Origin: an uncultured Gammaproteobacteria bacterium
GTDB taxonomy: Bacteria; Patescibacteriota; Microgenomatia; UBA10105; UBA927
Reading direction: 5' to 3'
Assembly: GCA_964349125.1 (NCBI GenBank)
Contig: CAYGFH010000002.1
Span: 110,484 to 174,483 of the forward strand
Length of the DNA: 64,000 nt
Shown: in pieces, positions 10,417 through 64,000 of the stretch
How positions within the stretch are numbered: the stretch's first letter is position 1
Layout: each line of letters opens with the position of its first letter
The notes under the pieces: model-generated
What the model saw: only the letters and a program-made list of their open reading frames with translations
The model's database searches: none
Told to the model about the DNA's origin: nothing
Made by a program: the position numbers and the translations under genes

Positions 10417-10422
10417 AGTCTA

Positions 10423-10941: not shown

Positions 10942-10970
10942 ACTATGTAGTTGTATCATATGTAGGACGG

Positions 10971-16684: not shown

Positions 16685-17617
16685 TTACTTCTTTGCAAAC
16701 ACAATCATATCATCCCAAGGGTTGATCGGGTTCATGATCTTAAAATGGTCAAAAAGTTTTCCAAGAGGTTTTAACATCCATGCTGCCCATGGGAAGTAAT
16801 CCCCTGCTCTTGTGAAAGCAAACGACAAAGGAAATGGTCGTGGAGTATCGGACAGAATTTCTATATGGGAAAATCCCGTTTTTTGCAGAAGTTTTCGCAT
16901 GGTATCGAAATCTAGAAGGACTACATGCTCCGGGTGTCTATACCCAAACCATCGTTTTCCCATGATTTTTTGCCATATTCCTCCCTGATTCGGAGTTGCT
17001 AAAACTAGCAAACCACCCTTTTTGAGTAATTTATATACTCTATTCATCATACGCAGAGGATCACGCTCGTGTTCAATAATCTGAAATGCACTGATCACAT
17101 CAAATGACGAATCCTTCAATTGTTTGACTGTATAGACAGTTCCCTGATATGCACGCAGGTTTTGTTTCAAGCAGTACGAGACAGCATCTCTGGAAATATC
17201 TATACCCTCTACCCTGAATCCTTCCTTTTTTGCTTCTTCCAACAAAACCCCCATAGCGCAGCCGATGTCAAGAAATCGCAATCCGCGAATCGTGAATCGC
17301 GAATCGTGAATCGCATCAATTTTTCGATGTTTTACGGTTAACGGTTTACGTTTAGCGATTAACGAAGATATTTCACCAACCTTCTTCTTAAAGTACGCGT
17401 GGTGAACAGCCAGTTGGTCCATATACGGATCAAAATGCTCAAGATCCTCATGATACAGGGATGCGATTTCCTTAGCTGTGGGCATCGGGACAACCTGCAC
17501 TAGGCCACAGTGCCTGCATTTTCCCATATTCCATCTTTTATGATGTGCAAATAGGATTGTAAACGAACCTGACCGGCACAGTACGCATTTCATAACCAGG
17601 TAATAATACCATACCAT
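16685..17617 (-). CDS. Class I SAM-dependent methyltransferase with N-terminal Cys4 zinc-ribbon
   Basis: Motif I LDIGCAMGVLLEE. N-terminal CVLC...CRHC. It contains an in-frame heptamer-repeat-encoded segment (KRKPLTVKHRKIDAIHDSRFTIRGLRF) immediately before motif I. Confidence 0.65.
   Translation of the reverse strand: MVWYYYLVMKCVLCRSGSFTILFAHHKRWNMGKCRHCGLVQVVPMPTAKEIASLYHEDLEHFDPYMDQLAVHHAYFKKKVGEISSLIAKRKPLTVKHRKIDAIHDSRFTIRGLRFLDIGCAMGVLLEEAKKEGFRVEGIDISRDAVSYCLKQNLRAYQGTVYTVKQLKDSSFDVISAFQIIEHERDPLRMMNRVYKLLKKGGLLVLATPNQGGIWQKIMGKRWFGYRHPEHVVLLDFDTMRKLLQKTGFSHIEILSDTPRPFPLSFAFTRAGDYFPWAAWMLKPLGKLFDHFKIMNPINPWDDMIVFAKK
17284..17364. repeat. Two heptamer arrays, (GCGAATC/GTGAATC)x4 and ACGGTTA-ACGGTTT-ACGTTTA-GCGATTA, inside the methyltransferase CDS
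   Basis: Read directly; in-frame coding. Confidence 0.8.
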
Positions 17618-28570: not shown

Positions 28571-28576
28571 GCTATT

Positions 28577-28604
28577 CGATTCGCGGTTAACGGTTAACGG
28601 TTAA
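28577..28604. repeat. Heptamer array CGATTCG (CGGTTAA)x3 spanning the epimerase stop codon
   Basis: Read directly. Its reverse complement encodes ...ALTVNR-TAA. Confidence 0.85.
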
Positions 28605-29555
28605 CGCTTTTTTATACCATGCGTATGTTTCAAGTAATCCCATTTCCAGTGAAAATTTCGGCCTCCAGCCGAGTTTTGCTATTTTACTCCAATTGAGGTG
28701 TTGACTTGGGATTTCATTTTTCTGAGTATTTTTGATTGAGTAGGGTATCGTTGCACCCAATATCCGCTGGGCAGATTCAATTAATTTCAGTACAGAAAGA
28801 CTCGTATCAGACGCGATATTAAACGCTTCGCCGCGTGCCGCATCAAAATGCTCAAGCAAATAGAGGTATGCATCCACCACATCCCCGACATACACATAAT
28901 CCCGTACAAACGTCCCGTCGGACCGCAAAGCCAATTCTTCTCCTGTAATTGCCGAGTTCACTATGCTTGGTATGATTCTGGACATATTTAGGTCACCGGG
29001 ACCGTAAATATTACCAAATCGCACGGTTGATACAGGAGCACCATAGGTCCTCACATATGCGTTTGTTATGATATCAGCTGCTGATTTACTTGCTTCATAC
29101 GGGTGGTCACCGGCCAGAGGGTGATCCTCTGAGTAAGTTTTGTCACTTTTGCCATAGGCCTTGTCTGATGATGTCACGATGATCCGCTGCACTGTAGCAC
29201 TCTGCCAGGCGGCATCAAGTACATGTGTTGTCCCGATCACATTGGTGGTTATTGTTTCAACAGGGTTTGCATAGGCCGTATCCACAATCGGCTGCGCCGC
29301 CAGGTGGTAGATAGTTTCAATTTCGTATTTGGATACAATATCAGTAATTCTCCGTCTGTCTGTAATATCTCCCTGCGCAAGCACTGTTTTTTTATCTAAA
29401 CCGCGGGTCATAAAATATGAGGCATGATCAATGCTCCGAAATGGGATAACCACACGTGCACCTCTTTGCACCAGTGCCTCAACGAGATGACTACCGACGA
29501 ACCCGGTTCCGCCGGTAACCAATATGTGTGAATGACTGCCGATTTGATAGCTCAT
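28587..29555 (-). CDS. NAD-dependent sugar-nucleotide 4,6-dehydratase/epimerase (SDR); candidate CDP-glucose 4,6-dehydratase
   Basis: ILVTGGTGFVGSHLVEAL and YEASKSAAD (YxxxK). Its last residues ...ALTVNR* and its stop codon are encoded by the CGGTTAA heptamer array. Confidence 0.65.
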   Translation of the reverse strand: MSYQIGSHSHILVTGGTGFVGSHLVEALVQRGARVVIPFRSIDHASYFMTRGLDKKTVLAQGDITDRRRITDIVSKYEIETIYHLAAQPIVDTAYANPVETITTNVIGTTHVLDAAWQSATVQRIIVTSSDKAYGKSDKTYSEDHPLAGDHPYEASKSAADIITNAYVRTYGAPVSTVRFGNIYGPGDLNMSRIIPSIVNSAITGEELALRSDGTFVRDYVYVGDVVDAYLYLLEHFDAARGEAFNIASDTSLSVLKLIESAQRILGATIPYSIKNTQKNEIPSQHLNWSKIAKLGWRPKFSLEMGLLETYAWYKKALTVNR

Positions 29556-36622: not shown

Positions 36623-36636
36623 TCGCGAACGCAAAA

Positions 36637-36692
36637 CGATTAACGATTAACGATTAACGATTAACGATTAACGATTAACGATTAACGATTAA
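36637..36692. repeat. Perfect tandem heptanucleotide array (CGATTAA)x8, flanked upstream by degenerate CGNNNAN heptamers from 36603
   Basis: Direct count: 56 nt = 8 x 7. It lies 25 bp upstream of the ATG at 36718. Confidence 0.9.
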
Positions 36693-36717
36693 CGTATGGT
36701 ATCATACCCTCACAATT

Positions 36718-38201: not shown

Positions 38202-39320
38202 ATGAAGCATATACCTCTCGTGAACCTGGAGCGTCAATTTACGTCAATTAAGCGTGACGTAACACGCGCGCTACTTGCCGTCTGTAAAAAGACCGATTTT
38301 ATTCTCGGTGATGAGGTTCTGGAATTTGAAGAAGCGTTTGCCACGTATATAGGAGTTTCGTACTGTGTCGGTGTTGCAAACGGTACAGACGCCTTAAAAC
38401 TTATGGGAATGGCCTCTGGCATCACAAAGGGTGACGAGATTATCATGCAGGCCAATACGTTTATCGCGACAGCCCTCCCGTTTATTGAACTTGGTGCGAC
38501 ACCGGTCTTCGTTGACTGCGATCCAAAAACCGGACAGATAGATGTAGCAGCTGTAGAAAAAGCGATGACGAAAAAGACCCGTGCCATTATCCCAGTCCAC
38601 CTGTACGGGTATCCGGCACCCATCAATGAATTATCACGGTTAACGGTTAACAGTTCGCGATTAACGATACTTGAGGACGCCTGTCAGGCACACGGCTCCA
38701 TGGTGAACGGCAAAAAATGCGGATCGTTTGGCGATATGGCTGCTTTTTCTTTCTATCCGGGCAAAAACCTTGGCGCGTACGGCGACGGCGGCGCAGTGGT
38801 GACAAACAGTAAGAAACTGTACGAAAAGCTGAAGATTATTAGAAACATCGGACAGAAGAAAAAATATGAGCATACGGTGCTTGGCACCAACAGCAGGCTT
38901 GATACCATACAGGCGGCTGTATTATCCGTCAAACTCCCCCACCTTGATTCGTGGAACAGGAAAAGAAATACTATCGCGCTTCGATATCTGCGGGAGCTAT
39001 CCGATGTACAGGGATTGGCATTGCCACCACTTCCGTCGAGAGAATCAGCTACAAACTGGCATTTATTTGTCGTTCAAACCTCAAGGAGAACTGCACTCAT
39101 GAAATTTTTACACGCAAACGGTATTCATACAGGCATCCATTACCCGACACCGCTACATACTACACCTGCATTGAAGTTTCTGGGATATACACAGGGAGAC
39201 TTCCCCAGGAGCGAGGCACGCGCCAAGCAACTGCTCACACTTCCTCTGTATGCTGAACTTACAGAATCTGAAATTTCCTATATAATCCGAACAATCAAAA
39301 CTTTCTGTATAAAAAAGTAA
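38202..39320 (+). CDS. DegT/DnrJ/EryC1/StrS-family aminotransferase (WbpE/WlbC-like)
   Basis: Lys motif FSFYPGKNLGAYGDGG. It has an unusual in-frame heptamer-repeat-encoded segment INELSRLTVNSSRLTIL where paralogs have MDAIMKLARKYKLKVI. Confidence 0.75.
   Translation: MKHIPLVNLERQFTSIKRDVTRALLAVCKKTDFILGDEVLEFEEAFATYIGVSYCVGVANGTDALKLMGMASGITKGDEIIMQANTFIATALPFIELGATPVFVDCDPKTGQIDVAAVEKAMTKKTRAIIPVHLYGYPAPINELSRLTVNSSRLTILEDACQAHGSMVNGKKCGSFGDMAAFSFYPGKNLGAYGDGGAVVTNSKKLYEKLKIIRNIGQKKKYEHTVLGTNSRLDTIQAAVLSVKLPHLDSWNRKRNTIALRYLRELSDVQGLALPPLPSRESATNWHLFVVQTSRRTALMKFLHANGIHTGIHYPTPLHTTPALKFLGYTQGDFPRSEARAKQLLTLPLYAELTESEISYIIRTIKTFCIKK
38637..38664. repeat. CGGTTAA CGGTTAA CAGTTCG CGATTAA heptamers inside the aminotransferase CDS
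   Basis: Read directly; encodes SRLTVNSSRLTI. Confidence 0.8.
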
Positions 39321-48503: not shown

Positions 48504-48546
48504 CGGTAAAATCGCTAATCGCTAATGGTTATTCGTTATTCGTATA
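48504..48546. repeat. Heptamer array (ATCGCTA x2, TGGTTAT, TCGTTAT x2-like) in the promoter region of the minus gene starting at 48488
   Basis: Read directly. Confidence 0.75.
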
Positions 48547-48600
48547 TATTATTCTGTCCCCTAACCCCTATTCTAATCTCTATGGTACAATTGCGCTGAT

Positions 48601-51170: not shown

Positions 51171-53126
51171 GTGGTATCAATGTGGTGTTATATTCTTATG
51201 AAACGAGTCTTTACATACCTTGCTGATCCATCTCATATACACATCATTTTAGCGGTGGGATTGCTGTTTCGTCTCGTACTTATACCGAGCCCCGGGTTTG
51301 AAGCGGACATTTCATTCTGGAAATCATGGGGTCTTGCTGTGCGTGATTACGGCATAGTGAAGGGATTACCACTTACGAATTTCAACTACCCTACTCCTTT
51401 CGGATACATGCTTGGTTTCATGGCGCATGTGTATAGCCTTTTCTCTGATCCGCATAATTTTGATCAGTTCTGGAAAAATACAAATCTCCTCTTCCTCACT
51501 GTTGCAAAAGCTCCATCAATTTTAGCTGATTTTGGTATTTTTACTATTATCCTTTGGGTTGGGAAAAATGCAAAACGGCTCAATTTTCCGCAACTTTCGC
51601 TCTCAATCTATTATCTTTTGGCAGCCATATATATACTTTCTCCCCTCCCGATGTTTGATGGTGCGCTTTGGGGACAGGTTGATAGTGTGGGGGTATTTCT
51701 GTTTCTGCTTGCCAATGTGTTCGTATGGAGAAAACAGCCACTTTTGGGAGGAATTTTTTACATGGTTTCCATGATGACCAAGCTGCAGAACCTTATCTAC
51801 GGACCGGCATTTTTTCTCTTTGTCTGGCAATATCTGGGTTATACGGGACTTGTGCGGGCAGTCGCCGGGAGCGTAGCCACATTTATCGGACTGAACATTG
51901 AGTTTATCCTTGCTAGGCAAATGTACCGCGTTGCGGGAGACCTGACAGGCAATTATGACTATTTCCCATGGATGTCGCTTAATGCCTATAACGTCTGGTG
52001 GATAGTAGCCAAGGCGCACGGGATGCAGATTTCAGATAAACTGTCAGTCATAGGTATTGCAAGCGCAAAGACAGTCGGATTATTTCTGTTTTCCTCCACA
52101 TACCTTTTGGCCTGTTTACAAATGCTTAGAGGTCGATTCCTTGGTGTCGTTGCGAGCGAAGCGCGGCAATCTCATCATAAGATTGCTTCGACCGATGGTA
52201 CTCATGGGTCTCGCAATGACATTGATGAAAGCTCAATCATCAATAAAGAACTTATCTTCCGCTACCTGAGCGCACTTATCATTGTGTGTGCCGGGTTCTT
52301 CCTATTCCAAACTCAATCGCACGACAGATATGCATTCCCAATCGCTGTATTTGCCCTTCTTTGGGCTCCCTTTTACATCAGCGGGTTACGTGTTGCGATA
52401 GACAAAGTACGCATACAACAATTTATATTGTTTTACGGAATTTTTACCGTTCTATTTTTCTACAACATCCATAACGCCATGATTGCAAACTACCCAAAAA
52501 ATGGCATCCCGCTTCTCGGTTCACTCAATATCCCTCCCCTGACCATCGCCACGTCGTATGGGCAAATAGGGTTATTCCTTGCCTTTCTGTACACTATCAG
52601 AACATACATAACGAACCAAATTTTCATAATTGCGACGAGTGTTTGGATATTACTTGTCGTCATGGCAAACAAGGCACTCATTCTGGGTAAGCCCATACCC
52701 ATCACAGACCTCACACCAATTACCAGCATCACGGGCTACGGCAGGCGTCAGGAAAACATGCCGGTGAATGCGAGTTTCGGTATAAAAAACTGGGGATTTT
52801 TGTCGGTACAATATGCGTACTACAAGCGAGGTATAGGAACACACGCGCCGAGCCGTGAGGTATATGATATAAATCGTAAGTTTCGCACACTTTCTACAGA
52901 CATGGGAATCGACACCAACGGCGGACCACAGGGAAGTGTGATATTTTCAGTGTATGGGGACGGGAAACAACTGTACCAATCAGAACTTATCAAGCGGTAC
53001 GAATTCCCTAGGCACGCCACCATAGATATAACAGGTGTAAAGACACTGGAACTAAGCATTTCAGATGGCGGAAACGGAAATTTTGATGATCATGCAAATT
53101 GGTTAAACACGTACCTGATACCGTAA
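51171..53126 (+). CDS. Polytopic membrane protein (GT-C-like paralog) with C-terminal NPCBM/NEW2 carbohydrate-binding domain
   Basis: The C-terminal 140 aa 'FGIKNWGFLSVQYAYYKRGIGTHAPSREVYDI...GIDTNGGPQGSVIFSVYGDGKQLYQS...LELSISDGGNGNFDDHANWLNTYL' match the NPCBM signature. The gene contains an in-frame 75-bp palindromic element at 52146..52220. Confidence 0.45.
   Translation: MVSMWCYILMKRVFTYLADPSHIHIILAVGLLFRLVLIPSPGFEADISFWKSWGLAVRDYGIVKGLPLTNFNYPTPFGYMLGFMAHVYSLFSDPHNFDQFWKNTNLLFLTVAKAPSILADFGIFTIILWVGKNAKRLNFPQLSLSIYYLLAAIYILSPLPMFDGALWGQVDSVGVFLFLLANVFVWRKQPLLGGIFYMVSMMTKLQNLIYGPAFFLFVWQYLGYTGLVRAVAGSVATFIGLNIEFILARQMYRVAGDLTGNYDYFPWMSLNAYNVWWIVAKAHGMQISDKLSVIGIASAKTVGLFLFSSTYLLACLQMLRGRFLGVVASEARQSHHKIASTDGTHGSRNDIDESSIINKELIFRYLSALIIVCAGFFLFQTQSHDRYAFPIAVFALLWAPFYISGLRVAIDKVRIQQFILFYGIFTVLFFYNIHNAMIANYPKNGIPLLGSLNIPPLTIATSYGQIGLFLAFLYTIRTYITNQIFIIATSVWILLVVMANKALILGKPIPITDLTPITSITGYGRRQENMPVNASFGIKNWGFLSVQYAYYKRGIGTHAPSREVYDINRKFRTLSTDMGIDTNGGPQGSVIFSVYGDGKQLYQSELIKRYEFPRHATIDITGVKTLELSISDGGNGNFDDHANWLNTYLIP
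52146..52220. mobile_element. MITE-like palindromic element copy A (75 bp) with terminal inverted repeats GTCGTTGCGAG / CTCGCAATGAC and internal hairpin GCAATCT-n7-AGATTGC, inserted in-frame in a CDS
   Basis: Direct alignment with copy B. It is translated as ...VVASEARQSHHKIASTDGTHGSRND. Confidence 0.6.
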
Positions 53127-53139
53127 TAACATTCTGCAT

Positions 53140-53231
53140 GTCATTGCGAGGAGTCCACGACAGTTCGTCGTGACGACGCGGCAATCTCTTTCGTATAGAT
53201 TGCTTCGCCGTTGGAACGGACTCGCAATGAC
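53140..53231. mobile_element. MITE-like palindromic element copy B (92 bp), intergenic
   Basis: TIRs GTCATTGCGAGGAGTCC / GGACTCGCAATGAC. It shares the core GCGGCAATCTC..AGATTGCTTCG with copy A. Confidence 0.6.
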
Positions 53232-53243
53232 AAAGAAGAATAT

Positions 53244-55751
53244 ATGAAAAAACTGACGATTGATAAAATACTAGGACTGCTGATGCTCATTTTTTCCATC
53301 GGCTTCAACTTGTTTCTCTACAGGTTGGAGCCCACCGCGACAATCGACCCAAACGACAATACATTCCAGTTTGCTCTCGTAGATAGGACAAACACTATAT
53401 GGGATTTTGCTGTCAAAAAGTGTTCATCTTCAATATCCGGAATTTTGACCTATCCGATCTGTCATTTTTCGTACTTGGCTGACCATTGGGTGAACAATTG
53501 GGCAGAAGGATATAACCTCCCCTACTACTACTCACATATCCCGCAGATTGCCATAGTTGGAAGCTACCGATTGATTCACTGGATTACTTCAATGTTCAAT
53601 GTTCAATTTTCAATTTTTCAATACTATCATGTAGTGATTTATTTGCTTCTGTGTTTTACTCCACTGCCTGTATTTCTTGCCATCCGTGTGATTGGATTGT
53701 CTTGGCTGACAGCAGGCATAGGCGCGCTCTTAGCTACACATTTATCTACGGACGGATTGTACGGCCTTGACCCGTCTTCGTACCTTTGGCGGGGATACGG
53801 ATTATCCAGTCAGCTGTTTGCGATGATATGGCTTCCTCTGGCATTGGCCTATTCGTATAAATTTTTCGTTAACCGTGAACCGTTAACCGCTAACCGCGAT
53901 TGGAAACACTTATTTTCGATTAACGATTTACGATTAGCGATTAGCGCTATTGTATTTACTACCCTCACCACCGCCGGTCATTTGGGTATCGGTATGATTA
54001 CCATGCTCTCTATTGGCTTTTTGGCTATCTCAAACCCGATTTCTAGATTCATGGAGCAGTCATCTCGTAAGGAAATCCTGCAGTCTCTTTTTGAATCGCT
54101 TATCCGATTATTCCTGATCGCAGGAGTGTCGATTTTCCTCCTGAGCTACTGGATTATCCCAACCTTTATACATGGCAACTTCCACAATATGTCCTTCTGG
54201 GATCCGGTGTGGAAATTTGACTCGTACGGGGCTATGGAAACAATCATCAGATTGTTCAATGGAGATCTATTGGACTTCGGGCGCGTCCCCATTCTGACCG
54301 CGCTAACATTTGCAGGGATAGTGGCTGGATTTGGTCTGACTATCAACAGGGCTGTGAAACGGGCTGAAGATGCTGACGGACAAGCAGATGGCATATATAA
54401 AACGCTCTACCCTTTCTCGTTTCTTTTCTTATTCTGGATAGTATTTTACTTCGGCCGTACCACGTGGGGTGGACTGATTGATCTCATTCCCGGCATGAAG
54501 GATTTTCATTTGTCCCGTTTCATAGTCGGTGTGCATGTAGCCTCTATGCTGTTAATACCGATCGGATTTTCTTGGATCGCTGAACAGTTGATTCAATACA
54601 TACAACGATCCAAGAATGTTCAATTTTCAATTTTCAATTATCGATTACCGTCTCACTTGCTTATTCGCGTATTTGTGTATATGTCTATTGGAATATTGAT
54701 TATTCCTCCTGTCTATCGGTGGACACTCACCTATAATGAGCTCAACGACCGACTGATCGTCCAGGCAAACGGCAACCATGCAAAGGTAACAGAAGATGAG
54801 CAGGCACTATTTACAAAGCTGCGAAGCCTACCTCCCGGGCGCATATTTGCGGGGCGTGGTGGAGGGTTCGGGAAACGGTTCGAGGTCGCGGAAACACCAT
54901 ACTACATGCATCTGTCCACGTACGGCCTTCCTACCACATTATGGCTCCCGGAAACATGGTCTATGAACTCCGATACAGAACAGTATTTCAGTGAGGATCA
55001 GGAAAAAGATTATGACTTATACAATATCAGATATGTGGCGGCTCCAGCAGATGAGCCGGCACGTCCATTTTGGACACTGATAGACGAACGCCCCACATGG
55101 AAACTGTATAAAGTGAAAACAACCGGATACTTCACCACAGGAGTACGACCGGCAACCATTTCTATCGGAAAACAATCATTTATGTCATTGGTTCACCTGT
55201 GGATTCAGTCAGATATGCATAAAAATAGATTGTTTCCCGAAATGACCTTTGATACAACGTATCCCAAACCATTCGGACTTCCAAATTTCAAAATGCTAGA
55301 TGAGGTTACGTACATGACCCCAGATGGAAAAAAGCACAACCTATGGGCTGAACCTCCGGTCTATCTCCCCTCGGGCGTGAAATCACTTGACGAGTTTGCA
55401 AAATTAGAAAACCAGAAGCAGGGAGACATGGAGCTCCTTGGCCCTGAGAAAACCGACACAGATATGGTATTTTCCACGACGGTGAAAGTCGGTAAAAATT
55501 GTACGGAGTGCATGGTTATCCTAAAACACACATTCCATCCCGGATGGAGGGCATTCATTGACGGAAAAGCGGCAAAAACGATGATAGTATTCCCCTTCTA
55601 TATCGGAGTTCATGTTCCAGAAGGAACACATACGATAACACTTTCTTATGAACCATCAAAGCTAAAAATAGCACTTCTTACAGCGGCTATCGTCGCCTTG
55701 GCAGGGTTCATTTGGTTAGCCCGTCTACACGCTCCAAAAAATCAAACCTAA
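53244..55751 (+). CDS. Large (about 835 aa) polytopic membrane protein, GT-C-like paralog with extended C-terminal extracytoplasmic domain and terminal TM
   Basis: I moved the start to MKKLTIDKILGLLMLIF because the track start at 53211 lies inside the MITE-like element. It contains heptamer-repeat-encoded NVQFSIFQY / NVQFSIFNY and LTANRDW...INDLRLAIS segments. Confidence 0.35.
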   Translation: MKKLTIDKILGLLMLIFSIGFNLFLYRLEPTATIDPNDNTFQFALVDRTNTIWDFAVKKCSSSISGILTYPICHFSYLADHWVNNWAEGYNLPYYYSHIPQIAIVGSYRLIHWITSMFNVQFSIFQYYHVVIYLLLCFTPLPVFLAIRVIGLSWLTAGIGALLATHLSTDGLYGLDPSSYLWRGYGLSSQLFAMIWLPLALAYSYKFFVNREPLTANRDWKHLFSINDLRLAISAIVFTTLTTAGHLGIGMITMLSIGFLAISNPISRFMEQSSRKEILQSLFESLIRLFLIAGVSIFLLSYWIIPTFIHGNFHNMSFWDPVWKFDSYGAMETIIRLFNGDLLDFGRVPILTALTFAGIVAGFGLTINRAVKRAEDADGQADGIYKTLYPFSFLFLFWIVFYFGRTTWGGLIDLIPGMKDFHLSRFIVGVHVASMLLIPIGFSWIAEQLIQYIQRSKNVQFSIFNYRLPSHLLIRVFVYMSIGILIIPPVYRWTLTYNELNDRLIVQANGNHAKVTEDEQALFTKLRSLPPGRIFAGRGGGFGKRFEVAETPYYMHLSTYGLPTTLWLPETWSMNSDTEQYFSEDQEKDYDLYNIRYVAAPADEPARPFWTLIDERPTWKLYKVKTTGYFTTGVRPATISIGKQSFMSLVHLWIQSDMHKNRLFPEMTFDTTYPKPFGLPNFKMLDEVTYMTPDGKKHNLWAEPPVYLPSGVKSLDEFAKLENQKQGDMELLGPEKTDTDMVFSTTVKVGKNCTECMVILKHTFHPGWRAFIDGKAAKTMIVFPFYIGVHVPEGTHTITLSYEPSKLKIALLTAAIVALAGFIWLARLHAPKNQT
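53867..53947. repeat. Heptamer arrays CGTTAAC-CGTGAAC-CGTTAAC-CGCTAAC-CGCGATT and CGATTAA-CGATTTA-CGATTAG-CGATTAG inside a CDS
   Basis: Read directly. Confidence 0.8.
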
Positions 55752-56006: not shown

Positions 56007-59000
56007 TTATCTTGCTTCTTCCGCCTCGCTACAGCTATACATATCATTATGTAGTGTCGGATTATATCTATTGAAAAATGCTTCCATGCCAAATAAATCT
56101 CTGAGAACCTTCAGCTCATCAGCCCACCTGAGTGCTCCGTATTGTGATCGCGATTGCCCAAGAACCGTCGGGATAATGACTTCCGGAGATGTGTTATTTA
56201 AAAGCACCAATAAATTAAACGCATGATATGCTTCTCCGACGCGATTGACCAGTGAATAGTCCTTATATTCATTTTTAGCCAGAAGCGCATCTGCGTTGAA
56301 ATATCCTTCAATCGGATACGGCAATTCTTCCGGGTGACCGTATTGGGACAAAATCATATCTCCTGTAGTCTCAGGGGTTTTATACGCTGGCAATGTGTTA
56401 AAGGATAAATTAGACGAATATTCATCCAAAATATGTTTTCGCATCCAATTGGCGGATTGCCATAACGGAATCATTTCTTCACGATTTTGCTTAGCGGTAA
56501 ATGCCTGTCGGGATTGATACTTCAGATAGTTCGTAGTGTCTGTAAGAGCTAAATCTAAATCACCATTCTCATAATCCAAAAAATGCGCCAAAATATATGA
56601 AGCAGATACTGGAGTATTGGTTTCCTCCACTGTCTTCTCAATTTCTTTTGTCAACAAATAGAAAGCCTCTAATCTTGGTTTATATGAGTCTTCTGGCAAA
56701 TCTGTATTGAACGCGGCACTATACCCACCCCCGCGTCCTAATAAGTCCGTAATCGGCATGCCACGATAGGTTTGCTCTCCGACACCTTTTAAGCATGTAA
56801 ACGCAGATTTCGGCAGGTTTCCACTTGATCCACTTGTTCCCTCAACAGCTTTCCAACCATTTTCGATAAACAGTCGTATCAACGATTTTCCAACCATGTA
56901 ATCTGCCAAACCATCTTCACAAATGTCCTTTATGAGCTTATATTTCTCATCATCCTTCTGAATTTTTTTTGTGAATTGTGAAACTACTTCATAGGGTGAC
57001 GTATAGTCTCCATAACTCCAAATGACAGGCGCATTTGGATTATTTTCTCTATACAGATCAATTCCTTCCTGAACTATTTCCTTCACGGGACGTGCGTTTG
57101 GATTCTCTTGTGGCAACGCTGGCCCGTGCAACGTATCATCTTCTACAGCCATCTGTAACAAATCTTTGTGCCAGTACGATAGCCAAAGATACGCGGAGCC
57201 TTTCACTAGTAAGCGCCCTACTGTATAGCTCATTGTTCCCTCTTTGCATTTATTTAAGATGTCGGAAAGAAGTTGGAGTGAGAATACCCAGGTAAGTATT
57301 TGTCGTTTTTTCATCTTTTTTTCTCCACCACCCCCACCGTTTCCCTTTTCTGAATCTCGCAATCTCAACGCTTGGGCGACTGCAACAGGGGCGTGTGTGA
57401 TAATTTTTCCTACTGCAGCCAAACATGTTTTTCCAAAGCCCGCACCATCCCCGTCCTTCGCATAAACTTTGTGAATAAACGGATTTTGCCCCAATCCTCC
57501 CCCACCGCAATAATCTTCAACAGCAGCAATTTCTTCTTTAATTTGAACTGTTTCATTCTGAAATTGTAATTGTGTTGTTCCATTATTTGAAATACCTGAA
57601 TGACCATCCCTATCTGGATTTGAATATACATATCCTGGATTGGTGTTCATAAACACTGGTAGCTTATTTGGTATATTAATATTTTTATTCAACCAATTGC
57701 CTGGATTCAGATAATCATTTTCTTGCACTCTATTTGGTCTTATATTCTTGGATAGATTTTTTTCGTAACGTGCCTTTCGATATACCTGAGCAAGTGAGAA
57801 AATACGCACAGCATAGAAATTTTTTCTAAGCCCATAAATCAAAATATCTGCAGAAGCATCAGTATAGAAAATCGATATATTTTGTGTTTTTGAAGTAGGC
57901 ATTCTATTATTTGAAATTTCTATGGCTAAATACCTTGCCTCTTTCTCAATATTCATAACTTCCTCTGCTGTAAACTCATGCTGGAAATATTGTTTCAATG
58001 CCTTATATTGGGCACGATATGTTGAGTATTTGATATATCCTTTATAGATAAGTTCAGGCACATTATGGGTGAAGAATAATAAGCCACCCACTATAGCACT
58101 TGTCGGTTCAAACTTGTTGTCAACCAAAATTTGTGCGGACATAAGCGGCTGAAGTATAGTCCATGCATGTATACTTGTTTGGATAATTGTTTTTAATATA
58201 GTGCTTTGAACGTCTGCTGTAACACCTTCATCCTGTACCTTTTGAATAAATTCTCCGAGTCTATCAGTAGATTGCATAAATCGTAGTACTGATGGGTGAA
58301 TAATACCAAATATAGTCGGTTCAGATTGTGAGGATGCTTTTTTATTTTTTAGAAGCATAGTGCCAACACTCTTTTCCCATTCCTTGTCAATAATTTCCTG
58401 ATTGAGCTGTTTTTGAAGCTCTTTTAAGATAGACACTGTATTTTCCGCTTGGCGTATTCGTGCATCCCAACGTTCCGTCCATATTTGGACTGAGCTCACA
58501 GGGCGATTGCTTAGAGATATCTGTGTTTTATTTGTCGTGCCTCCTAAATAATTTCCGCTCCATTGCGCAAGAATAGCGGTATGTAATTTCGATGGAATAT
58601 CTGTCTGCTTCAGGAATTCACGCATTTCATTTTCAAAAGTTGATTCCAGATATAAGGTATCCGGAGTAAAGGCGTCGGAGTATTTTGATATTGTATCCTG
58701 AAAAATTTCATCCGAAGTCGCAAGTGATGATTGGATGTGCGCAACTTGTTTATGCATAAGCATTTTCATACGTTGTTCTTCTGTGAATTGGTATGGGTTA
58801 TAGTACCAACTATCAGTTCCAACGCCGTGTTGCTGAGACATGACTCTCATTAGAGTTCCTGTACCAAATAATGAGTCGATTAATGTTCCCAAAGCCGGAG
58901 CACTAAATTGTTGGCCATCTGATCCGACAAAGTGTTGTATTCCATACAAGTGTTCACTTCTGGCTGAAACGACGAGAGATCTCCAGACAAGCTGTTCTGG

Positions 59001-62000
59001 AAGATACGACATTAATACATCTAACACTGTACGAATACCGTATACAGACTCATCATACGAAGGAGCTCCCCCAGGGATGATTGAATGTGCAAGAGTCTCT
59101 GTAAGTCCTTCCATATTTCCTGTATCTACAGCAATCGATGGAACGTATGCAGTATTCGGTTGCATCATATGGATACTCTCATGTATTGATGTTTGCAACA
59201 GACTAATAAGTCCCATAATTACTTGCTGCCCTTCGGAAAAAACCGATAATCCAGCTACTGCAGTTTGAGTGCTTGATTGTTGCATCCCAGCTTCATTCGA
59301 TGTTAATGTTAATTTCAGTTGCTGCTCTATATACGAGATAGGAAATACAAGATCCTCGGGAGTGTGCCATGCGTCATTCCAACCCGTTCTCTCTTTCATA
59401 ACTTGCTTCGCTTTTGACTGTGATGCATGCTGTATTTCGCGATAATTATTTATGCTTCCGAAAATATCAAGAACATTTTCTATAGATGCCAATGCAAGCA
59501 TGCTGACAAATCTAAGCTTTTCATCACTTATATGCTCACTTGTCACACTATTTCCGAATCGTATGAAGAGTATTTTTAGAATTTCCCGCTCTTCCTGCGT
59601 AAACGATGAATAATCAAAAAGATTAGCGTTTAATCCTGAGACTTTGTGTAAGGTATCTCGATATTTTTTTAGCAAAATATCTAATTTTTTCATCGGGACG
59701 GTCACTGAATCACCACCCGCTATGTTCTTCGCAATATGATATGTTAAATCCTCGTAGGGAAATGGTATATGGAGTATCGATGCTGCTGCTTCATACTCTT
59801 CAAAATTTACGGCACCATGAGGACTCTCTGTAGATGTAGGTTGATGATTTTTTTGTGTGATTTTACGACTATTTTGCATATATAATACATACCCATTAAC
59901 AATATCTTCACTGAAGAGTATCTGCGTTGGGTTTAATGCTTTTATTTCTTTCATGATATATAAAATATCTTCCGTGGTCAGAATTGATCTGATGCCATTT
60001 TTAAGATCCAGAAGTCTAGGATGATGTTCAACCATTGGTTCAAGCGCATTGCTCACCAAAATTATTCGTTGAATTTTTTCTAAATTATTCACGGCCTCAG
60101 TAGCGTGGCGATTTATAACACTTGTTGAATCAGTATCATGTACGCGTACTGCTTTTCTTTGTCTAACACCGATTCCCTGTTTCAGTATTTGACTCAAACG
60201 TGAAGCTGGTATACCCATATCTGGTATAGCGAGTAACCAATCGGATGAAGTAGATATGATTGGTAATGAGCCGATATGTATACGGGCTAGCGTCCAATCC
60301 AATATGTTAAATACGCCTAAGGAAGTGATGAGTTTGGAAACATATTGAACAATTTGTAATTCCTTGAACAGCGTAATTGCATTTGATGAGATACCTGTTA
60401 TGGAATCTATCTGCTGCTGAGGTAATACAACGTCCAGGGCATGCCATACTCCCCAAGCTCCAATAGTGCTTCCCAAAATTCTCACTACTCTCGATGCTAT
60501 GCGTTTGGGCCAAAAATATTTCTCAAGTGGCTTTAGGGCCTCTGTAGTTATAGTATTTCCTAATTTATTGGCAAGCACCTTTAATAGCACTTCTGTCTCA
60601 TGTGGAGTTACATTTTCAAGGAATATTTTAGAAAAAACAGACATACGTATGTATATAACCGGAGCACGTTTCATATTGCCCTTTCGATCAATAATTGCAG
60701 AATGTGTTACAAATTGTGGCTTGTTATTCACAGTCCAATTAATCCAATCCAAACTCAGTATTTTGCCTATAATTGGTATGCGAAAAGGAGCTATGCTTGC
60801 CATGTACGCCCGGTATTCTTCAGGCGTCAGGATTACGCGGGTGCGTTCGGCGATCTGTATACCTGTAGCGTAGTCAATATTAGTTTCTATTACGGCCTTT
60901 TTAATCATTTCTTTGATAGCACCTGAATTCACTATCATCGTATAAGAAACTCCAGATCGATCAGTCTGATATGCGAAAGAGTTAGCATATTCAATTTCCT
61001 GTTGTCTCATCGGAAGAACCCAATGTTTTATGAGCATAAGTATACTTTCTTGTGGTATATTCGTTTTTGTCGAACCATACCCTCTCGATTGCATATACCT
61101 GATAATTGAACCGATCGGAGCAGTCCATATTTTTCGTATCGATTGAATACTGGTACTAACCAAAGGGTGATGTGCTATCCTGCTTCTCAACCCAGGTTTA
61201 CACGCAGATGCTGATGTGTCAGCGGCAAATACTATTTTGGTTAATCCGAAGCTATTGATTGTTACGGCGCATGCCTCTGCAGCATTCAGGCGCACCTCCT
61301 CAAACTTTGCTGCTATTTGGGACAAAATAGTATAGGTAAACCATTCAGAGGGAAGTCTGAACATTGATCCGTTTAGATAGATACTTGGTCTCACCGATGA
61401 TCCTCCGGATTTGTATTTAGCTATCAAAAAGAAATGTCCGCTGGATGTGAATGCCGGTATAAGCTGTTCGATATTTGACGGCTGGGGCGATGCCATGCCA
61501 AACCAACCAAAGCTTCCAGAGGCCGTCTGCATGAGGCCGCCTTCTTTCCCGTTACTACACGAATTAAATATGATGGAAGGATTTTCTACAAATACCTTTT
61601 TGATAATCGGTGCCAAAAATGAATCTTCGTATAAATCTGCTTTTGCGAGGATTTGATTCATATCGCTCGCATCACCAAAGGACATCTGATTGGCTGATCC
61701 ATGACCACCAAATACGCCAAATACCATGCGATTACCTCTCCCGTACCGCTCATGAAGTGTTTCGAGTTTTTTCCCTAGCGTTTGTATATCCTGTACCTCA
61801 ACTACTCTGACAAGTGGAGGTTTGAAGTCATACGAGGCATCGTGTAACTGTTTCATCTGCGAATGAAACGTCGAGAGCATTTTTATTTCGCTTAAAAATG
61901 CCCCGTTCCAATCAGCTTCCGGATTTATAATGACTCCATATTCTCGTGTTGTATCGTTTCTTTCATCGTACTGCGCAACGAGCATTTCTGTGGGATAGCG

Positions 62001-64000
62001 GGCGAAATTTTTTATGCCAAATTCATGTAACAATACAACTGCAGACCCTTTTCGTTCTTTCTCCAACCTCTCAATGGCAAGAATATTTTGCTCGTATGTA
62101 TAGAGGAAATCCCTATCTGATTTATTCAGAGGATCATATAAACTTGGGTTTATTTCTCGCATCGGGATCGGACCTAAATTCCATGCATTGCGTATAGCAC
62201 TGGTTTCCTCACCGGTAAAGCCATATTTCTGTATCAATAGGCTCACATTACGCGGCAGCAAGGTATCTCCGTTGGGATTCATCAGGGTGGCCATAAAATC
62301 AGAGGATGCTCTGGTGGGATAGAACCCTTCCATGGCACCGCTGAGAATGAGCATTTTATATCGCAATGGATTTTCGCGTAATCCTTTCCTGATCTCTGGA
62401 TTAAACGCCATGTCTAACATAGTATTCATCACATCTGAAGCCCGTCTTCCGTGAGGCAAGTACCCGTACGTTCCATTAATCTCATCCGTGATCACAGTAA
62501 CCTCTCGCATTCCTGCTCCATTGAGTGCCTCCGTAATCAGCGCTTTTTCATCGTTTGATAAGTAATCACGCAGACTTCGGAAATTCCCATAGTGGTAGTA
62601 CATTTCCCTCACAAAATCTTCGAGAGATGAATGCCCGTTTTCATTTACTATTGTTTGCATAAACGTAAATTGTGTACGAATATAGGAAAGTGCTTTTGCT
62701 TTTGCATTCGCTGATCCAAATCGAAGTATTTGCATGAGTGGATACATTCTGGTGTACCATGCTGCCGATCCGTCTCCATCGGTAAAGCGAAGAATGTCAT
62801 CAAAATGCGATTCCAAAAACCGGACTGATTCCCTATCTACTATAGAAATAGAATTATTAACGCTATAAGAAATAAGTTGTATCGATGCATTTGGGTCTTC
62901 TGCAAAGTGTTCTCGAAAAATGTCTGCATTAAATGCCAATATATCTATAACATTTTCCCGCCCGTTATCCGATGAATCATCAGCTGTAATAAACGAGACG
63001 AATGTATTCAATAGCGTGGCGTAATCCTCTTTCGACTTTGAAAGAAGTAGTAGATCTGTTCGAATATCTTCCTGTAACGATTCCCATTGTGGGGTTCTCC
63101 ATAATTTTCTATCTAGCGCAGCGAACTCTTTTACGTTAAAAAGAATTCGCGAAGCTGCTAGGCTTGCTGTAGTAGTACCTGGTGATTGCTTCTTCACAGT
63201 TTCAACCACAGAATCATCTGTTGTTGGAACAAGCGAACTGTTAGAATCCAGTGTTTTTTCTATCCACGCTTTGATTGCTCCAAAGAATTTTTGGACAGCG
63301 GTTTGCCGTGGAAGTGGCATAAGGGTATTGCCGGAAATTCTTAAAATTTCTTCGTTATTTTGGGTAAATATAATTGTTCTGGTATTTTCGAAATAGATGG
63401 TTTCATTTGGAGTAATTTGGTATTTGGTCGGGTCATCAGCAAAGTGGTAAAACCCTTCAGATGGTACTTTCCCAAGTAACTTCCCATTAGCATCGAAATA
63501 CTGTCCTCCTGCAGACAAAATTACACACCCTATACCTTCCCGCTGTGCAAACACTTGTGGAACCAAATGAAGGGCCCTGTCTCCGCAGAGATTGAATGAT
63601 TTTTTTGCTATCCCATTTTTTGACGGCTCAAATTCTGCCTGCTGCAATATTTCATATGTCCCCCGTGTTCCCCCACCCCAATGGATAGTATCTGCAGGGC
63701 CACCTTTATCTGCGCCCACACTAAATGAACCTCTCCCCACAAACTGTTCTGCATCATTACCGTTTGGACTGTCCCCTATCTTAATCACATCATCCAATTC
63801 AATTCCATGTTCCTGTAGGACTCTAAATATATTTCCTTTATTTGCTTCATTGGATCTGATTGAAATAGAGTGACGACTACGTGACACAGCTACAACTGGT
63901 AGTGATTGCTGCGTAATATACTTCTGTATCACACTCACTGCTGGAGACGTTAACTGAGCATCTTCTAACCAAAGTGTCAGTGACTCTTTTTCTTCATAGA
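56007..64000 (-). CDS. Giant multidomain protein (>2,660 aa), 5'-truncated at the window edge; N-terminal HAD/Cof-like fragment and a central region with a candidate His/Cys dyad
   Basis: The frame stays open past the track's GTG at 63938 to nt 64000. 'KGNIFRVLQEHGIELDDVIKIGDSPNGNDAEQF' resembles HAD motif III/IV. 'MVFGVFGGHGSAN ... IIFNSCSNGKEGG' appears mid-protein. GC is visibly lower than in the rest of the window. Confidence 0.55.
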   Translation of the reverse strand, partial: YEEKESLTLWLEDAQLTSPAVSVIQKYITQQSLPVVAVSRSRHSISIRSNEANKGNIFRVLQEHGIELDDVIKIGDSPNGNDAEQFVGRGSFSVGADKGGPADTIHWGGGTRGTYEILQQAEFEPSKNGIAKKSFNLCGDRALHLVPQVFAQREGIGCVILSAGGQYFDANGKLLGKVPSEGFYHFADDPTKYQITPNETIYFENTRTIIFTQNNEEILRISGNTLMPLPRQTAVQKFFGAIKAWIEKTLDSNSSLVPTTDDSVVETVKKQSPGTTTASLAASRILFNVKEFAALDRKLWRTPQWESLQEDIRTDLLLLSKSKEDYATLLNTFVSFITADDSSDNGRENVIDILAFNADIFREHFAEDPNASIQLISYSVNNSISIVDRESVRFLESHFDDILRFTDGDGSAAWYTRMYPLMQILRFGSANAKAKALSYIRTQFTFMQTIVNENGHSSLEDFVREMYYHYGNFRSLRDYLSNDEKALITEALNGAGMREVTVITDEINGTYGYLPHGRRASDVMNTMLDMAFNPEIRKGLRENPLRYKMLILSGAMEGFYPTRASSDFMATLMNPNGDTLLPRNVSLLIQKYGFTGEETSAIRNAWNLGPIPMREINPSLYDPLNKSDRDFLYTYEQNILAIERLEKERKGSAVVLLHEFGIKNFARYPTEMLVAQYDERNDTTREYGVIINPEADWNGAFLSEIKMLSTFHSQMKQLHDASYDFKPPLVRVVEVQDIQTLGKKLETLHERYGRGNRMVFGVFGGHGSANQMSFGDASDMNQILAKADLYEDSFLAPIIKKVFVENPSIIFNSCSNGKEGGLMQTASGSFGWFGMASPQPSNIEQLIPAFTSSGHFFLIAKYKSGGSSVRPSIYLNGSMFRLPSEWFTYTILSQIAAKFEEVRLNAAEACAVTINSFGLTKIVFAADTSASACKPGLRSRIAHHPLVSTSIQSIRKIWTAPIGSIIRYMQSRGYGSTKTNIPQESILMLIKHWVLPMRQQEIEYANSFAYQTDRSGVSYTMIVNSGAIKEMIKKAVIETNIDYATGIQIAERTRVILTPEEYRAYMASIAPFRIPIIGKILSLDWINWTVNNKPQFVTHSAIIDRKGNMKRAPVIYIRMSVFSKIFLENVTPHETEVLLKVLANKLGNTITTEALKPLEKYFWPKRIASRVVRILGSTIGAWGVWHALDVVLPQQQIDSITGISSNAITLFKELQIVQYVSKLITSLGVFNILDWTLARIHIGSLPIISTSSDWLLAIPDMGIPASRLSQILKQGIGVRQRKAVRVHDTDSTSVINRHATEAVNNLEKIQRIILVSNALEPMVEHHPRLLDLKNGIRSILTTEDILYIMKEIKALNPTQILFSEDIVNGYVLYMQNSRKITQKNHQPTSTESPHGAVNFEEYEAAASILHIPFPYEDLTYHIAKNIAGGDSVTVPMKKLDILLKKYRDTLHKVSGLNANLFDYSSFTQEEREILKILFIRFGNSVTSEHISDEKLRFVSMLALASIENVLDIFGSINNYREIQHASQSKAKQVMKERTGWNDAWHTPEDLVFPISYIEQQLKLTLTSNEAGMQQSSTQTAVAGLSVFSEGQQVIMGLISLLQTSIHESIHMMQPNTAYVPSIAVDTGNMEGLTETLAHSIIPGGAPSYDESVYGIRTVLDVLMSYLPEQLVWRSLVVSARSEHLYGIQHFVGSDGQQFSAPALGTLIDSLFGTGTLMRVMSQQHGVGTDSWYYNPYQFTEEQRMKMLMHKQVAHIQSSLATSDEIFQDTISKYSDAFTPDTLYLESTFENEMREFLKQTDIPSKLHTAILAQWSGNYLGGTTNKTQISLSNRPVSSVQIWTERWDARIRQAENTVSILKELQKQLNQEIIDKEWEKSVGTMLLKNKKASSQSEPTIFGIIHPSVLRFMQSTDRLGEFIQKVQDEGVTADVQSTILKTIIQTSIHAWTILQPLMSAQILVDNKFEPTSAIVGGLLFFTHNVPELIYKGYIKYSTYRAQYKALKQYFQHEFTAEEVMNIEKEARYLAIEISNNRMPTSKTQNISIFYTDASADILIYGLRKNFYAVRIFSLAQVYRKARYEKNLSKNIRPNRVQENDYLNPGNWLNKNINIPNKLPVFMNTNPGYVYSNPDRDGHSGISNNGTTQLQFQNETVQIKEEIAAVEDYCGGGGLGQNPFIHKVYAKDGDGAGFGKTCLAAVGKIITHAPVAVAQALRLRDSEKGNGGGGGEKKMKKRQILTWVFSLQLLSDILNKCKEGTMSYTVGRLLVKGSAYLWLSYWHKDLLQMAVEDDTLHGPALPQENPNARPVKEIVQEGIDLYRENNPNAPVIWSYGDYTSPYEVVSQFTKKIQKDDEKYKLIKDICEDGLADYMVGKSLIRLFIENGWKAVEGTSGSSGNLPKSAFTCLKGVGEQTYRGMPITDLLGRGGGYSAAFNTDLPEDSYKPRLEAFYLLTKEIEKTVEETNTPVSASYILAHFLDYENGDLDLALTDTTNYLKYQSRQAFTAKQNREEMIPLWQSANWMRKHILDEYSSNLSFNTLPAYKTPETTGDMILSQYGHPEELPYPIEGYFNADALLAKNEYKDYSLVNRVGEAYHAFNLLVLLNNTSPEVIIPTVLGQSRSQYGALRWADELKVLRDLFGMEAFFNRYNPTLHNDMYSCSEAEEAR

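Follow-up and report, generated by a model that had tools for sequence, protein, structure and literature searches.

The occurrence of two similar palindromes in the window (the whole 64-kb stretch of DNA analysed here), one inside a membrane-protein gene and the other in the gap that follows it, raises the question of what kind of element they represent and how one of them came to be read as protein. The first-pass annotation described them as two copies of one MITE-like palindromic family. The common family is confirmed by an nhmmer profile built solely from copies in other organisms, unrelated to the window, which within the window matches 52145-52221 (copy A) and 53139-53233 (copy B) and nothing else (E 1e-10 to 1e-7). 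Taken together, the observations below make it probable that A and B belong to a widespread, CGTC-tagged, REP-like family that is spread in trans, with A being a recent in-frame insert and B a typical copy.

With 1 mismatch at most allowed, the 64 kb contain the terminal motif GTCRTTGCGAG exactly 4 times, namely at the four ends of A and B. Taken alone this count is not significant, as 14 of 100 shuffles reach 4; it is the arrangement that is significant, because neither the inner hairpin GCAATCTC-N-AGATTGC (2 in the window) nor the paired terminal pattern (1 in the window) appears even once in 100 shuffles. This inner hairpin had been reported earlier with a gap of 7 or 9 nt, which in fact measures 6 nt for copy A and 8 nt for copy B, and the terminal inverted repeats, likewise genuine, extend one base further on each side than had been proposed, so that both copies read TGTC...GACA at their ends. 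These repeats are perfect over 11-12 bp in elements of 75-92 nt, and neither copy has a flanking duplication. Folding of both copies, which the first-pass annotation had suggested as a check, yields structures far more stable than those of shuffled sequences (z -4.2 to -5.6). The spacer and side hairpins of the only two copies in the window differ, and they are therefore not recent copies of one another; the 64 kb of the source genome that was examined, with its two copies, shows no burst in this lineage. A search of metagenomes for the 21-mer at the center of A recovered three related elements in unrelated contexts, and none further attributable to this genome.

The anatomy of the family can be described from 469 units. 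Each has a (C/T)GTC tag, ATTGC-GAG, a small variable hairpin (minimally the mini-hairpin GCGNAGC), CG(AA/YG)-GCAAT and a CCA or CTC tail (254 and 104 of the 469 units, respectively), with C-GNA-G mini-hairpins being the commonest inserts. The complete element consists of two units facing each other head-to-head across a short variable spacer, which as a single strand of DNA or RNA folds into an 11-bp outer stem, a central stem of about 12 bp and one or two side hairpins. Of 137 copies, 88 have C and 43 have T at position -1, and 92 have G and 42 have A at position +1. Copy A (52145..52221, with no strand assigned) is such a head-to-head dimer, its two REP-like units being of ATTGCGAG type and tagged with TGTC. 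Its left unit (52145..52173, plus strand), as read from the sequence in the light of this anatomy, comprises the tag TGTC (52145-48), GTTGCGAG (52149-56), the mini-hairpin region CGAAGCGCG (52157-65), GCAAT (52166-70) and the tail CTC (52171-73). The right unit (52180..52221, minus strand) comprises the tag TGTC, ATTGCGAG (52210-17), a distal hairpin (52191-52209), CGAAGCAAT (52182-90) and a tail. Copy B (53139..53232, again with no strand assigned) belongs to the same family and is likewise built head-to-head, with a core of 92 nt (53140-53231), and the fold of its left unit delimits a variable distal hairpin, GAGTCCACGACAGTTCGTCGTGACGACGCG (53151..53180, plus strand). The latter is the extra palindromic insert previously recognized in B; it is indeed present but is not peculiar to B, as many family members carry a variable hairpin at this position. 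The tails of the window copies are CTC, CTT and CTA variants.

The phyletic spread of the family is wide. A collection scan, whose pattern selects dimers and whose counts thus cover dimers, recovered at least 120 loci in IMG/VR viral contigs and at least 120 in genome contigs, and one Novosphingobium replicon has an element of the family in at least 40 places. The matches listed include Alpha-, Gamma- and Deltaproteobacteria (among them Rickettsiales and Coxiellaceae), Bacteroidota, Chloroflexi, Planctomycetota, Cyanobacteria and Patescibacteria, including Berkelbacteria. The first-pass annotation had allowed that no further copies might exist anywhere, an eventuality removed by the hundreds found elsewhere. 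In curated phage genomes the matches are confined to half-elements in Helicobacter canis prophage-type records, and a phage vector is therefore not supported.

The closest published counterpart is the CGTC-tagged REP superfamily, with families CGTC-1 to CGTC-4 (Di Nocera, De Gregorio, Rocco 2013, BMC Genomics 14:522, PMC3733652). As described in the text of that paper, its units, reported from five phyla, have an unpaired terminal tag, CGTC or its variants TGTC and CCTC, at the outer end, an AT-start stem of 8-9 uninterrupted bp with a loop of 4-5 nt, and a 3-nt unpaired tail, mostly CCA; they predominantly form head-to-head dimers, have no transposase and include in-frame intragenic copies (PMC3733652). 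The same account equates RPE-6 and the Neisseria dRS3 repeat (ATTCCC-N8-GGGAAT) with CGTC-1, and RPE-4 with CGTC-4 (PMC3733652). The elements studied here share with these descriptions the tag outside the stem (TGTC in A and B, with the C/T at -1 mirrored at +1), the 3-nt tail (mostly CCA in the family), the absence of target duplications and linked transposases, and the dimers folding as one long stem-loop, which here were retrieved with a dimer-selecting pattern. They also share a location past coding regions and occasional in-frame intragenic copies, including one in uvrA. The stem starts with A-T and T-A (ATTGC...GCAAT) in three of the four window units, and in the left unit of A it has GTTGC, a G-T wobble variant of this start. 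The tag, AT-start stem, CCA/CTC tail and head-to-head dimers therefore place A and B in the CGTC-tagged REP superfamily. They depart from the superfamily, as characterized in the same text, in that the stem extends for just 5 bp (ATTGC/GCAAT) before a purine-rich internal loop and the variable distal hairpin; a scan for canonical CGTC units, with a perfect stem of 6 bp or more, yields 0 in the window and 0-8 in shuffles. Judged by the text of that paper rather than its consensus figure, the ATTGCGAG unit with its interrupted stem matches none of the four published families, CGTC-2 being the one with which it might be identical. The text and supplements of PMC3733652 contain neither the ATTGCGAG string nor VIASE or LAMT peptides; its list of intragenic copies does not include the peptides encoded here (VIASEAKQS, SLRGAKRRSN, ...LAMT, ...ARND); and Patescibacteria, Chloroflexi, Planctomycetota and Cyanobacteria are additional to the phyla it reports. 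In the full-text literature the terminal and inner strings and the encoded peptides retrieve only unrelated primers and acronyms, and later REP papers merely cite the 2013 study.

The gene that hosts copy A (51198..53126, plus strand) encodes a membrane glycosyltransferase that is polytopic and GT-C-like (GT87/Gpi18-like) and has an NPCBM domain at its C terminus. The placement of A within this gene stands, but its start is most likely ATG 51198, giving a product of 642 aa (P0001), rather than GTG 51171 as annotated at first. The 75-nt core of A (52146-52220) corresponds to 25 codons in frame 0 and is read through as VVASEARQSHHKIASTDGTHGSRND, residues 317-341 of the product (326-350 counting from GTG 51171), and in the AlphaFold model pLDDT falls below 50 exactly at residues 325-350, which span the insert. 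The site is a loop between two transmembrane helices that is hypervariable, under no structural constraint and ranges from 0 to 90 residues in orthologs. The element is absent from all other orthologs examined, including the sister L123 (92% identity, gap-free columns), and the loops of L123, L124, L125, L249 and L250 have other sequences with no significant similarity to A. Hence, the prospect that all orthologs contain the segment as ordinary coding sequence is not realized, and by sequence comparison copy A is a lineage-specific insertion of 25 codons, as had been suspected. Identical copies of A are seen in three assemblies, which may share one sample. The host gene tolerates the insertion because 75 nt are divisible by three, stop codons are missing from two of the three frames of the element, and the loop can hold anything from 0 to 90 residues. 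An 'ASE-RQS' motif in the loops of the nearest orthologs was considered as a decayed copy of A and rejected, not being significant at the DNA level (p 0.23, 0.74); these residues are due to an unrelated 9-nt tandem repeat.

Peptides of the element type are found in just 2 of 120 homologues of the host protein. In the ortholog L247 (P0011), a different dimer of CGTC type, also 75 nt long and in frame 0, occupies nearly the same codon of the same loop; its unit is CGTC-1-like (VIPAKEPES), and it is an event independent of copy A. Elsewhere, in-frame copies of the A/B family occur in a UvrA-like protein, GMP synthase and a patescibacterial transglycosylase. In-frame palindromic insertions are textbook knowledge for Rickettsia, whose palindromic elements (RPE) were reportedly described by Ogata et al. 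in 2000 and 2002. Copy A behaves in the same way, being a short palindromic repeat in frame in a functional, conserved gene, absent from orthologs, which adds residues in the range of 20-30 to a permissive surface or loop. It differs in its host, a free-living or episymbiotic member of the Patescibacteria (Gottesmanbacteria-like) rather than Rickettsia, and in its ATTGCGAG unit type, which is apparently not that of a described RPE family. The likeness to RPEs drawn in the first-pass annotation is thus apt, all the more so as RPE-4 and RPE-6 fall in the same CGTC-tagged superfamily (PMC3733652).

Copy B lies 13 nt past the stop of the host gene at 53126 and 12 nt ahead of ATG 53244, wholly between two co-directional genes. 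The downstream gene (53244..55751, plus strand) encodes a YfhO-like membrane protein, whose start at ATG 53244 (MKKLTIDK...) is conserved in orthologs; the overlap with B claimed initially exists only if the longest-ORF start, TTG 53211, is used. B is in this respect a typical family copy just past a stop codon: among loci below 55% GC, 49 lie between tandem, 10 between convergent and 2 between divergent genes, and the tandem loci of both GC classes (n=93) are a median of 23 nt from the upstream stop. At the orthologous site of relatives at least four different palindromes, from four unrelated families, are found, and nearly all relatives have some strong hairpin there. L250 (76% protein identity) lacks A and has an orthologous copy at site B, between flanks that are not alignable, with a different distal hairpin, CCCGCTTGGCGGG, at the same position as that of B. 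At site B of L123 and L125 there are CGTC-1/2 dimers, CGTC-1 being the unit type of dRS3, and this turnover recalls the mosaic intergenic regions of Neisseria with several repeat types. The right junction is identical in the window and L123 (...ATGAC/AAAGAAGAATATATG, the slash marking the junction). That B is so well conserved between the window and L250 could be due to selection for a function in the host, and not to selfish spread.

These observations bring up the best-surviving alternative, which we consider possible though rather unlikely, namely that the elements, B above all, are RNA hairpins selected by the host for mRNA 3'-end protection, termination or insulation, or tuning of downstream translation, and are spread by recombination or horizontal transfer. 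The spacing of B between the two genes, the enrichment of family copies past stop codons and their depletion between divergent genes, the recurrence of hairpins of four unrelated families at site B, the retention of B in L250 and a compensatory change (C-G to T-A) in the unit stem of L123 all speak for such a function. Against it, no T-run follows B, and the sole terminator-like match lies inside the element and is no better than those in shuffles, the promoter and terminator scan around both copies having yielded no more than shuffles give. L249 manages with an intergenic region of 25 nt devoid of a hairpin. It is the sequence itself, and not merely the structure, that is invariant across phyla, and the two units take the CGAA or the CGYG form independently of each other (112/83/21 observed, 109/89/18 expected), and full pairing between units is therefore not selected at those positions. 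Furthermore, family copies are also found within coding regions in either orientation, and copy A is left unexplained. No Rfam 15 model matches the window at gathering score, with nothing relevant up to E = 10 in 52050-53330; tRNA and tmRNA genes are likewise absent from the window.

A classical MITE, that is, a deletion derivative of an IS with a DDE transposase that generates target-site duplications in the manner of Correia (NEMIS) elements, would account for the perfect terminal inverted repeats, the small size and the presence or absence of copies at orthologous sites. This reading, suggested by the term MITE-like in the first-pass annotation, is nevertheless very improbable. Direct duplications of 2-8 nt flanking 137 copies are at or below chance (flank matches of 1-3 nt are at or below chance, with 4 against 8.6 expected for 2 nt, and the longer ones are single matches), the flanks instead extending the palindrome. 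No transposase family is enriched within 8 kb of 120 genomic copies, no transposase cluster emerges among the clustered ORFs of the neighborhoods of 240 loci, and none of the 19 window ORFs scanned is a transposase; the recurring ORF families at the 240 loci are either generic (ABC ATPases, histidine kinases, SDRs) or shared phage/GTA-like structural genes. Nor was any long element or autonomous IS bounded by the same GTCATTGCGAG termini seen near the copies. Unlike inverted repeats specific to an IS, the termini do not differ from phylum to phylum, and in its tag, its tail and its dimeric build the element resembles REPs. Inverted repeats of 26 bp and a duplication of TA, both features of Correia elements, are absent here, and the ends of A and B are REP-type tags rather than IS-derived repeats; the comparison with that class hence does not hold.

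The inverted doublets of a tagged imperfect hairpin, the lack of target duplication, the extragenic location past genes and the proposed mobilization as single-stranded hairpins are instead shared with the REPIN/RAYT system and the REP/BIME elements of Escherichia coli. The tag is CGTC/TGTC here and GTAG there, and among the neighbors of the copies there is neither a Y1 transposase nor a RAYT gene flanked by units. Each lineage has its own REPIN sequences, passed on vertically, in contrast to the identical 11-nt ends that the present family keeps across phyla.

Two further readings concern the pair as such. It is hardly credible that A and B delimit a single larger composite segment (52146-53231), invertible or mobile, with the 3' half of the gene inside: the 3' terminus of A is indeed a perfect inverted repeat of the 5' terminus of B over 13 nt, at a distance of 915 nt, but this follows trivially from the palindromy of each element, the C-terminal half with the NPCBM domain is present in every ortholog with or without elements, and the two copies occur independently, L250 having B without A. 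That A is ordinary coding sequence resembling B by chance can practically be dismissed, since the 'ASE-RQS'-like residues of the nearest orthologs, which might have favored it, stem from the tandem repeat and A matches the external family profile with E of about 1e-10.

Given the above, we infer that the CGTC-tagged, REP-like elements reached their sites by transposition. The element would spread as a non-autonomous unit with the help of a trans-acting enzyme that recognizes its hairpin and tag, probably while the DNA is single-stranded, and for which a HUH/Y1 (RAYT/IS200-like) protein or some other type is a candidate; we know of no mobilizing enzyme for any CGTC-type repeat. Insertion and excision would be precise and without target duplication, and intergenic copies may secondarily serve as 3'-end RNA hairpins. 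A more specific and doubtful proposal is that the ATTGCGAG type represents a fifth, structurally distinct CGTC lineage that is still active, with structure- or site-specific cut-and-paste. The observations behind it are the identical 11-nt termini in several phyla, including Patescibacteria genomes of ~1 Mb, the swapping of CGTC families at one exact junction (site B), and the loop of one gene having been struck twice, each time by a 75-nt in-frame unit. If it were true, the enzyme would be either part of the universal housekeeping machinery or the product of a small, overlooked, horizontally moving gene, and the tiny gene sets of Patescibacteria would make the missing CGTC-mobilizing activity identifiable by intersection of gene contents.

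The in-frame insertion of palindromes known from Rickettsia is thus extended to the minimal genomes of Patescibacteria, with two independent insertions in a single protein loop. The repeat type is very widespread, ignored by public annotation and unlike the four published CGTC families by their descriptions. For annotation, the peptides VIASEAKQS..., SLRGA..., ...LAMT and ...ARND account for many small ORFs that are spurious and for unusual inserts in loops. Finally, the presence and apparent turnover of CGTC repeats in genomes of ~1 Mb narrows the search for their mobilizer.

The window, from a Patescibacteria genome, is a cell-envelope glycan region with its nearest named homologues in Candidatus Gottesmanbacteria. 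Among its products are GT2 and PMT-like glycosyltransferases, sugar-nucleotide enzymes and pilin-like proteins; no tRNA genes were found within it. The first-pass annotation had reported two copies of a palindromic element here, and this observation was confirmed. The two copies, A (52146-52220, 75 nt) and B (53140-53231, 92 nt), start with GTC(G/A)TTGCGAG, end with CTCGCAATGAC, and share an inner part comprising CGCGGCAATCTC, 6 or 8 nt, and AGATTGCTTCG. Within the window the terminal 11-mer (at most one mismatch) occurs only at the four ends of these copies, and neither the inner hairpin pattern nor the paired terminal pattern arose in 100 shuffles. Each copy folds into an outer stem of 11-12 bp, a central stem of at least 8 bp and one or two side hairpins, with minimum free energies of -38.6 kcal/mol for A (z -5.6) and -42.5 kcal/mol for B (z -4.2); the opposite strands fold similarly. 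Rfam returned no matches to the elements at any threshold.

Comparison of 253 distinct family copies shows that each half of the element is one unit, running in the order tag, ATTGCGAG, insert, CG(AA/CG/TG)GCAAT and tail. The base preceding the 11-mer is C or T, mirrored by G or A immediately after it (with Y/R at -2/+2), indicating that the true element end is (C/T)GTC. Direct flank repeats were at or below chance across the family copies, and hence there is no target-site duplication. The commonest inserts, CGAAG, CGCAG, CGTAG and CGGAG, followed by CGAA, form a GCGNAGC mini-hairpin, and longer inserts form larger hairpins; the "extra palindrome" earlier described in copy B is one of these hairpins. 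Tails are CCA in 54% and CTC in 22% of units, and agree between paired units in 164 of 216 dimers. The CGAA and CGYG variants combine randomly within dimers (observed 112/83/21, expected 109/89/18), and perfect pairing between units is therefore not kept at every position. Some family members in viral and genome loci, for example copies with an inner TGTCGTTGCGAGGAGTCCGCGACGCGGCAAC, contain a second unit, a GTCGTTGCGAG variant resembling the left end of copy A, nested in the first, a sequence arrangement that suggests element-into-element insertion or unit duplication.

An exact-pattern scan (GTCATTGCGAG, N40-70, CTCGCAATGAC) recovered at least 120 loci in IMG/VR viral contigs and at least 120 in bacterial contigs at one genome per species; curated phage genomes gave half-element matches only. 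Carriers among the matches listed include Bradyrhizobium, Sphingomonadales and other Alphaproteobacteria, Gamma- and Deltaproteobacteria, Coxiellaceae and Rickettsiales; Pedobacter, Mucilaginibacter and Flavobacterium; and Chloroflexi, Planctomycetota, Microcoleus and several Patescibacteria, including Berkelbacteria. A single Novosphingobium replicon has at least 40 family places, none of them annotated. A profile built from external copies matches only A and B in the window (E 1e-10), and also matches the copy B site of one relative, L250. Three elements on unrelated metagenome contigs (L251 860-960, L252 2150-2250 and L253 640-740) match copy A exactly in the central stem and loop (GCAATCTCATCATAAGATTGC) but differ in side hairpins and flanks; hence, the spacer may define sub-lineages that cross organisms.

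Copy A is an in-frame, lineage-specific insertion; the permissive loop that holds it belongs to a GT-C-like membrane glycosyltransferase of 642 aa (51198-53126), which has an NPCBM domain at its C-terminus. Alignment of 32 homologues places copy A between two transmembrane helices, in a hypervariable loop of about 0-90 residues. The loop DNA is a 9-nt tandem repeat in the sister L123 (92% identity) and in L125, and short, unrelated sequence in L124, L249 and L250, none of the five having significant DNA-level similarity to copy A. The earlier comparison with Rickettsia palindromic elements was apt. Two of the three forward frames of copy A are stop-free, and the element-encoded residues 325-350 are the exact span with pLDDT below 50 in the AlphaFold model (pTM 0.81). 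Only 2 of 120 homologues have an element-type peptide. The second carrier, P0011, encoded at L247, harbors a different CGTC-type dimer (GTCATTCCGGCC...CCCGGCATGAC), likewise of 75 nt and read with GTC as its first codon, one or two codons from the copy A insertion point.

In-frame elements of the ATTGCGAG type also occur in a UvrA-like ABC ATPase (VIASKAKQSHSTGSANNGIATSPLAPRND; L167 1761-4490, minus strand), recalling the 2013 report of REPs in repair genes, in a GMP synthase inside the GATase domain (L161 4073-5743, plus strand), and in a Patescibacteria transglycosylase close to its N-terminus (L176 7112-7999, plus strand). Tandem arrays of 7-nt units (AACGATT, AACGGTT, TTCAATG/T) are dispersed in the window (17274-17364, 28572-28609, 36625-36701, 38632-38666 and 48508-48548), with three more in frame within the YfhO-like gene downstream of copy B (53591-53624, 53867-53960 and 54615-54650), where they encode SMFNVQFSIFQYY, VNREPLTANRDWKHLFSINDLRLAIS and SKNVQFSIFNY at places that are hypervariable loops in orthologs. 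These arrays are a second type of repeat-derived loop sequence in the source genome. Elsewhere, three neighbouring small ORFs (9910-11633, minus strand) have an N-terminal methylation (type IV pilin-like) motif, and a 2643-aa ORF that matches no Pfam family extends towards the end of the window (56007-63938, minus strand), in a position occupied by giant genes of 6000-12000 residues in orthologous loci.

Copy B lies between the glycosyltransferase stop and the conserved ATG (53244) of the YfhO-like gene; its supposed overlap with that gene arose from TTG 53211, merely the longest-ORF start. This agrees with the post-stop position typical of the family: at loci below 55% GC, flanking genes are tandem in 49 cases, convergent in 10 and divergent in 2, and tandem loci of both GC classes (n=93) lie a median of 23 nt from the upstream stop. 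The main rival explanation, that intergenic copies are retained for forming RNA hairpins at the 3' end of mRNAs, is compatible with copy B, but leaves unexplained copy A, the other intragenic copies and the sequence invariance across phyla.

At the site orthologous to window 53127-53243, close relatives have at least four palindromic elements that are unrelated to one another. In L250 (76% identity) the element is of the copy B type and shares its 3' side hairpin but not its 5' one; L123 (3773-3851) and L125 (2503-2692) have CGTC-1/CGTC-2 heterodimers, the latter with (GATCGTG)n(GGTTCAT)n arrays; L124 (10646-10741) and L255 (2474-2561) have another palindrome in common; L254 (2063-2152) has an AT-rich palindrome of 76 nt; and L249 (11885-11909) has a hairpin-free spacer of 25 nt. 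The right junction ...ATGAC|AAAGAAGAATATATG is identical between the window and L123, and the element states are at odds with the host-protein tree, which together argue for gain, loss or exchange of discrete units with exact end points. Alternatively, lineages may have lost different members of an ancestral cluster, or strains may have recombined. In the P0011 lineage, the place of copy B between two membrane-protein genes is taken by a gene for a 126-aa member of the 23S rRNA intervening-sequence protein family (PF05635; L247 10630-11010).

Di Nocera et al. (2013; PMC3733652) describe CGTC-tagged REPs with a CGTC or TGTC tag, an AT-start stem of 8-9 bp, a loop of 4-5 nt and a CCA tail. These are mostly head-to-head dimers without transposase linkage, located after coding regions, with some in-frame intragenic copies; in their scheme, dRS3 of Neisseria and RPE-6 of Rickettsia both correspond to CGTC-1, and RPE-4 to CGTC-4. 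The window elements share the tag, AT-start, tail, dimer form, and lack of duplication and transposase, but their stem is interrupted, whereas the published criterion is an uninterrupted one. Given this difference, and the absence of their peptides from that paper's list of intragenic copies, they are classed here as a further member of the CGTC superfamily outside the four families as set out in the published text. The MITE/Correia label is incorrect, there being no target-site duplication and no transposase family enriched near copies across 240 loci. The element boundaries are precise. Spread would be non-autonomous, the tagged hairpin being recognised by a putative trans-acting enzyme, by analogy with REP/RAYT and IS200/IS605. 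CGTC-tagged REP dimers were already known; those described here belong to a new host group and show recurrent in-frame insertion into one loop.
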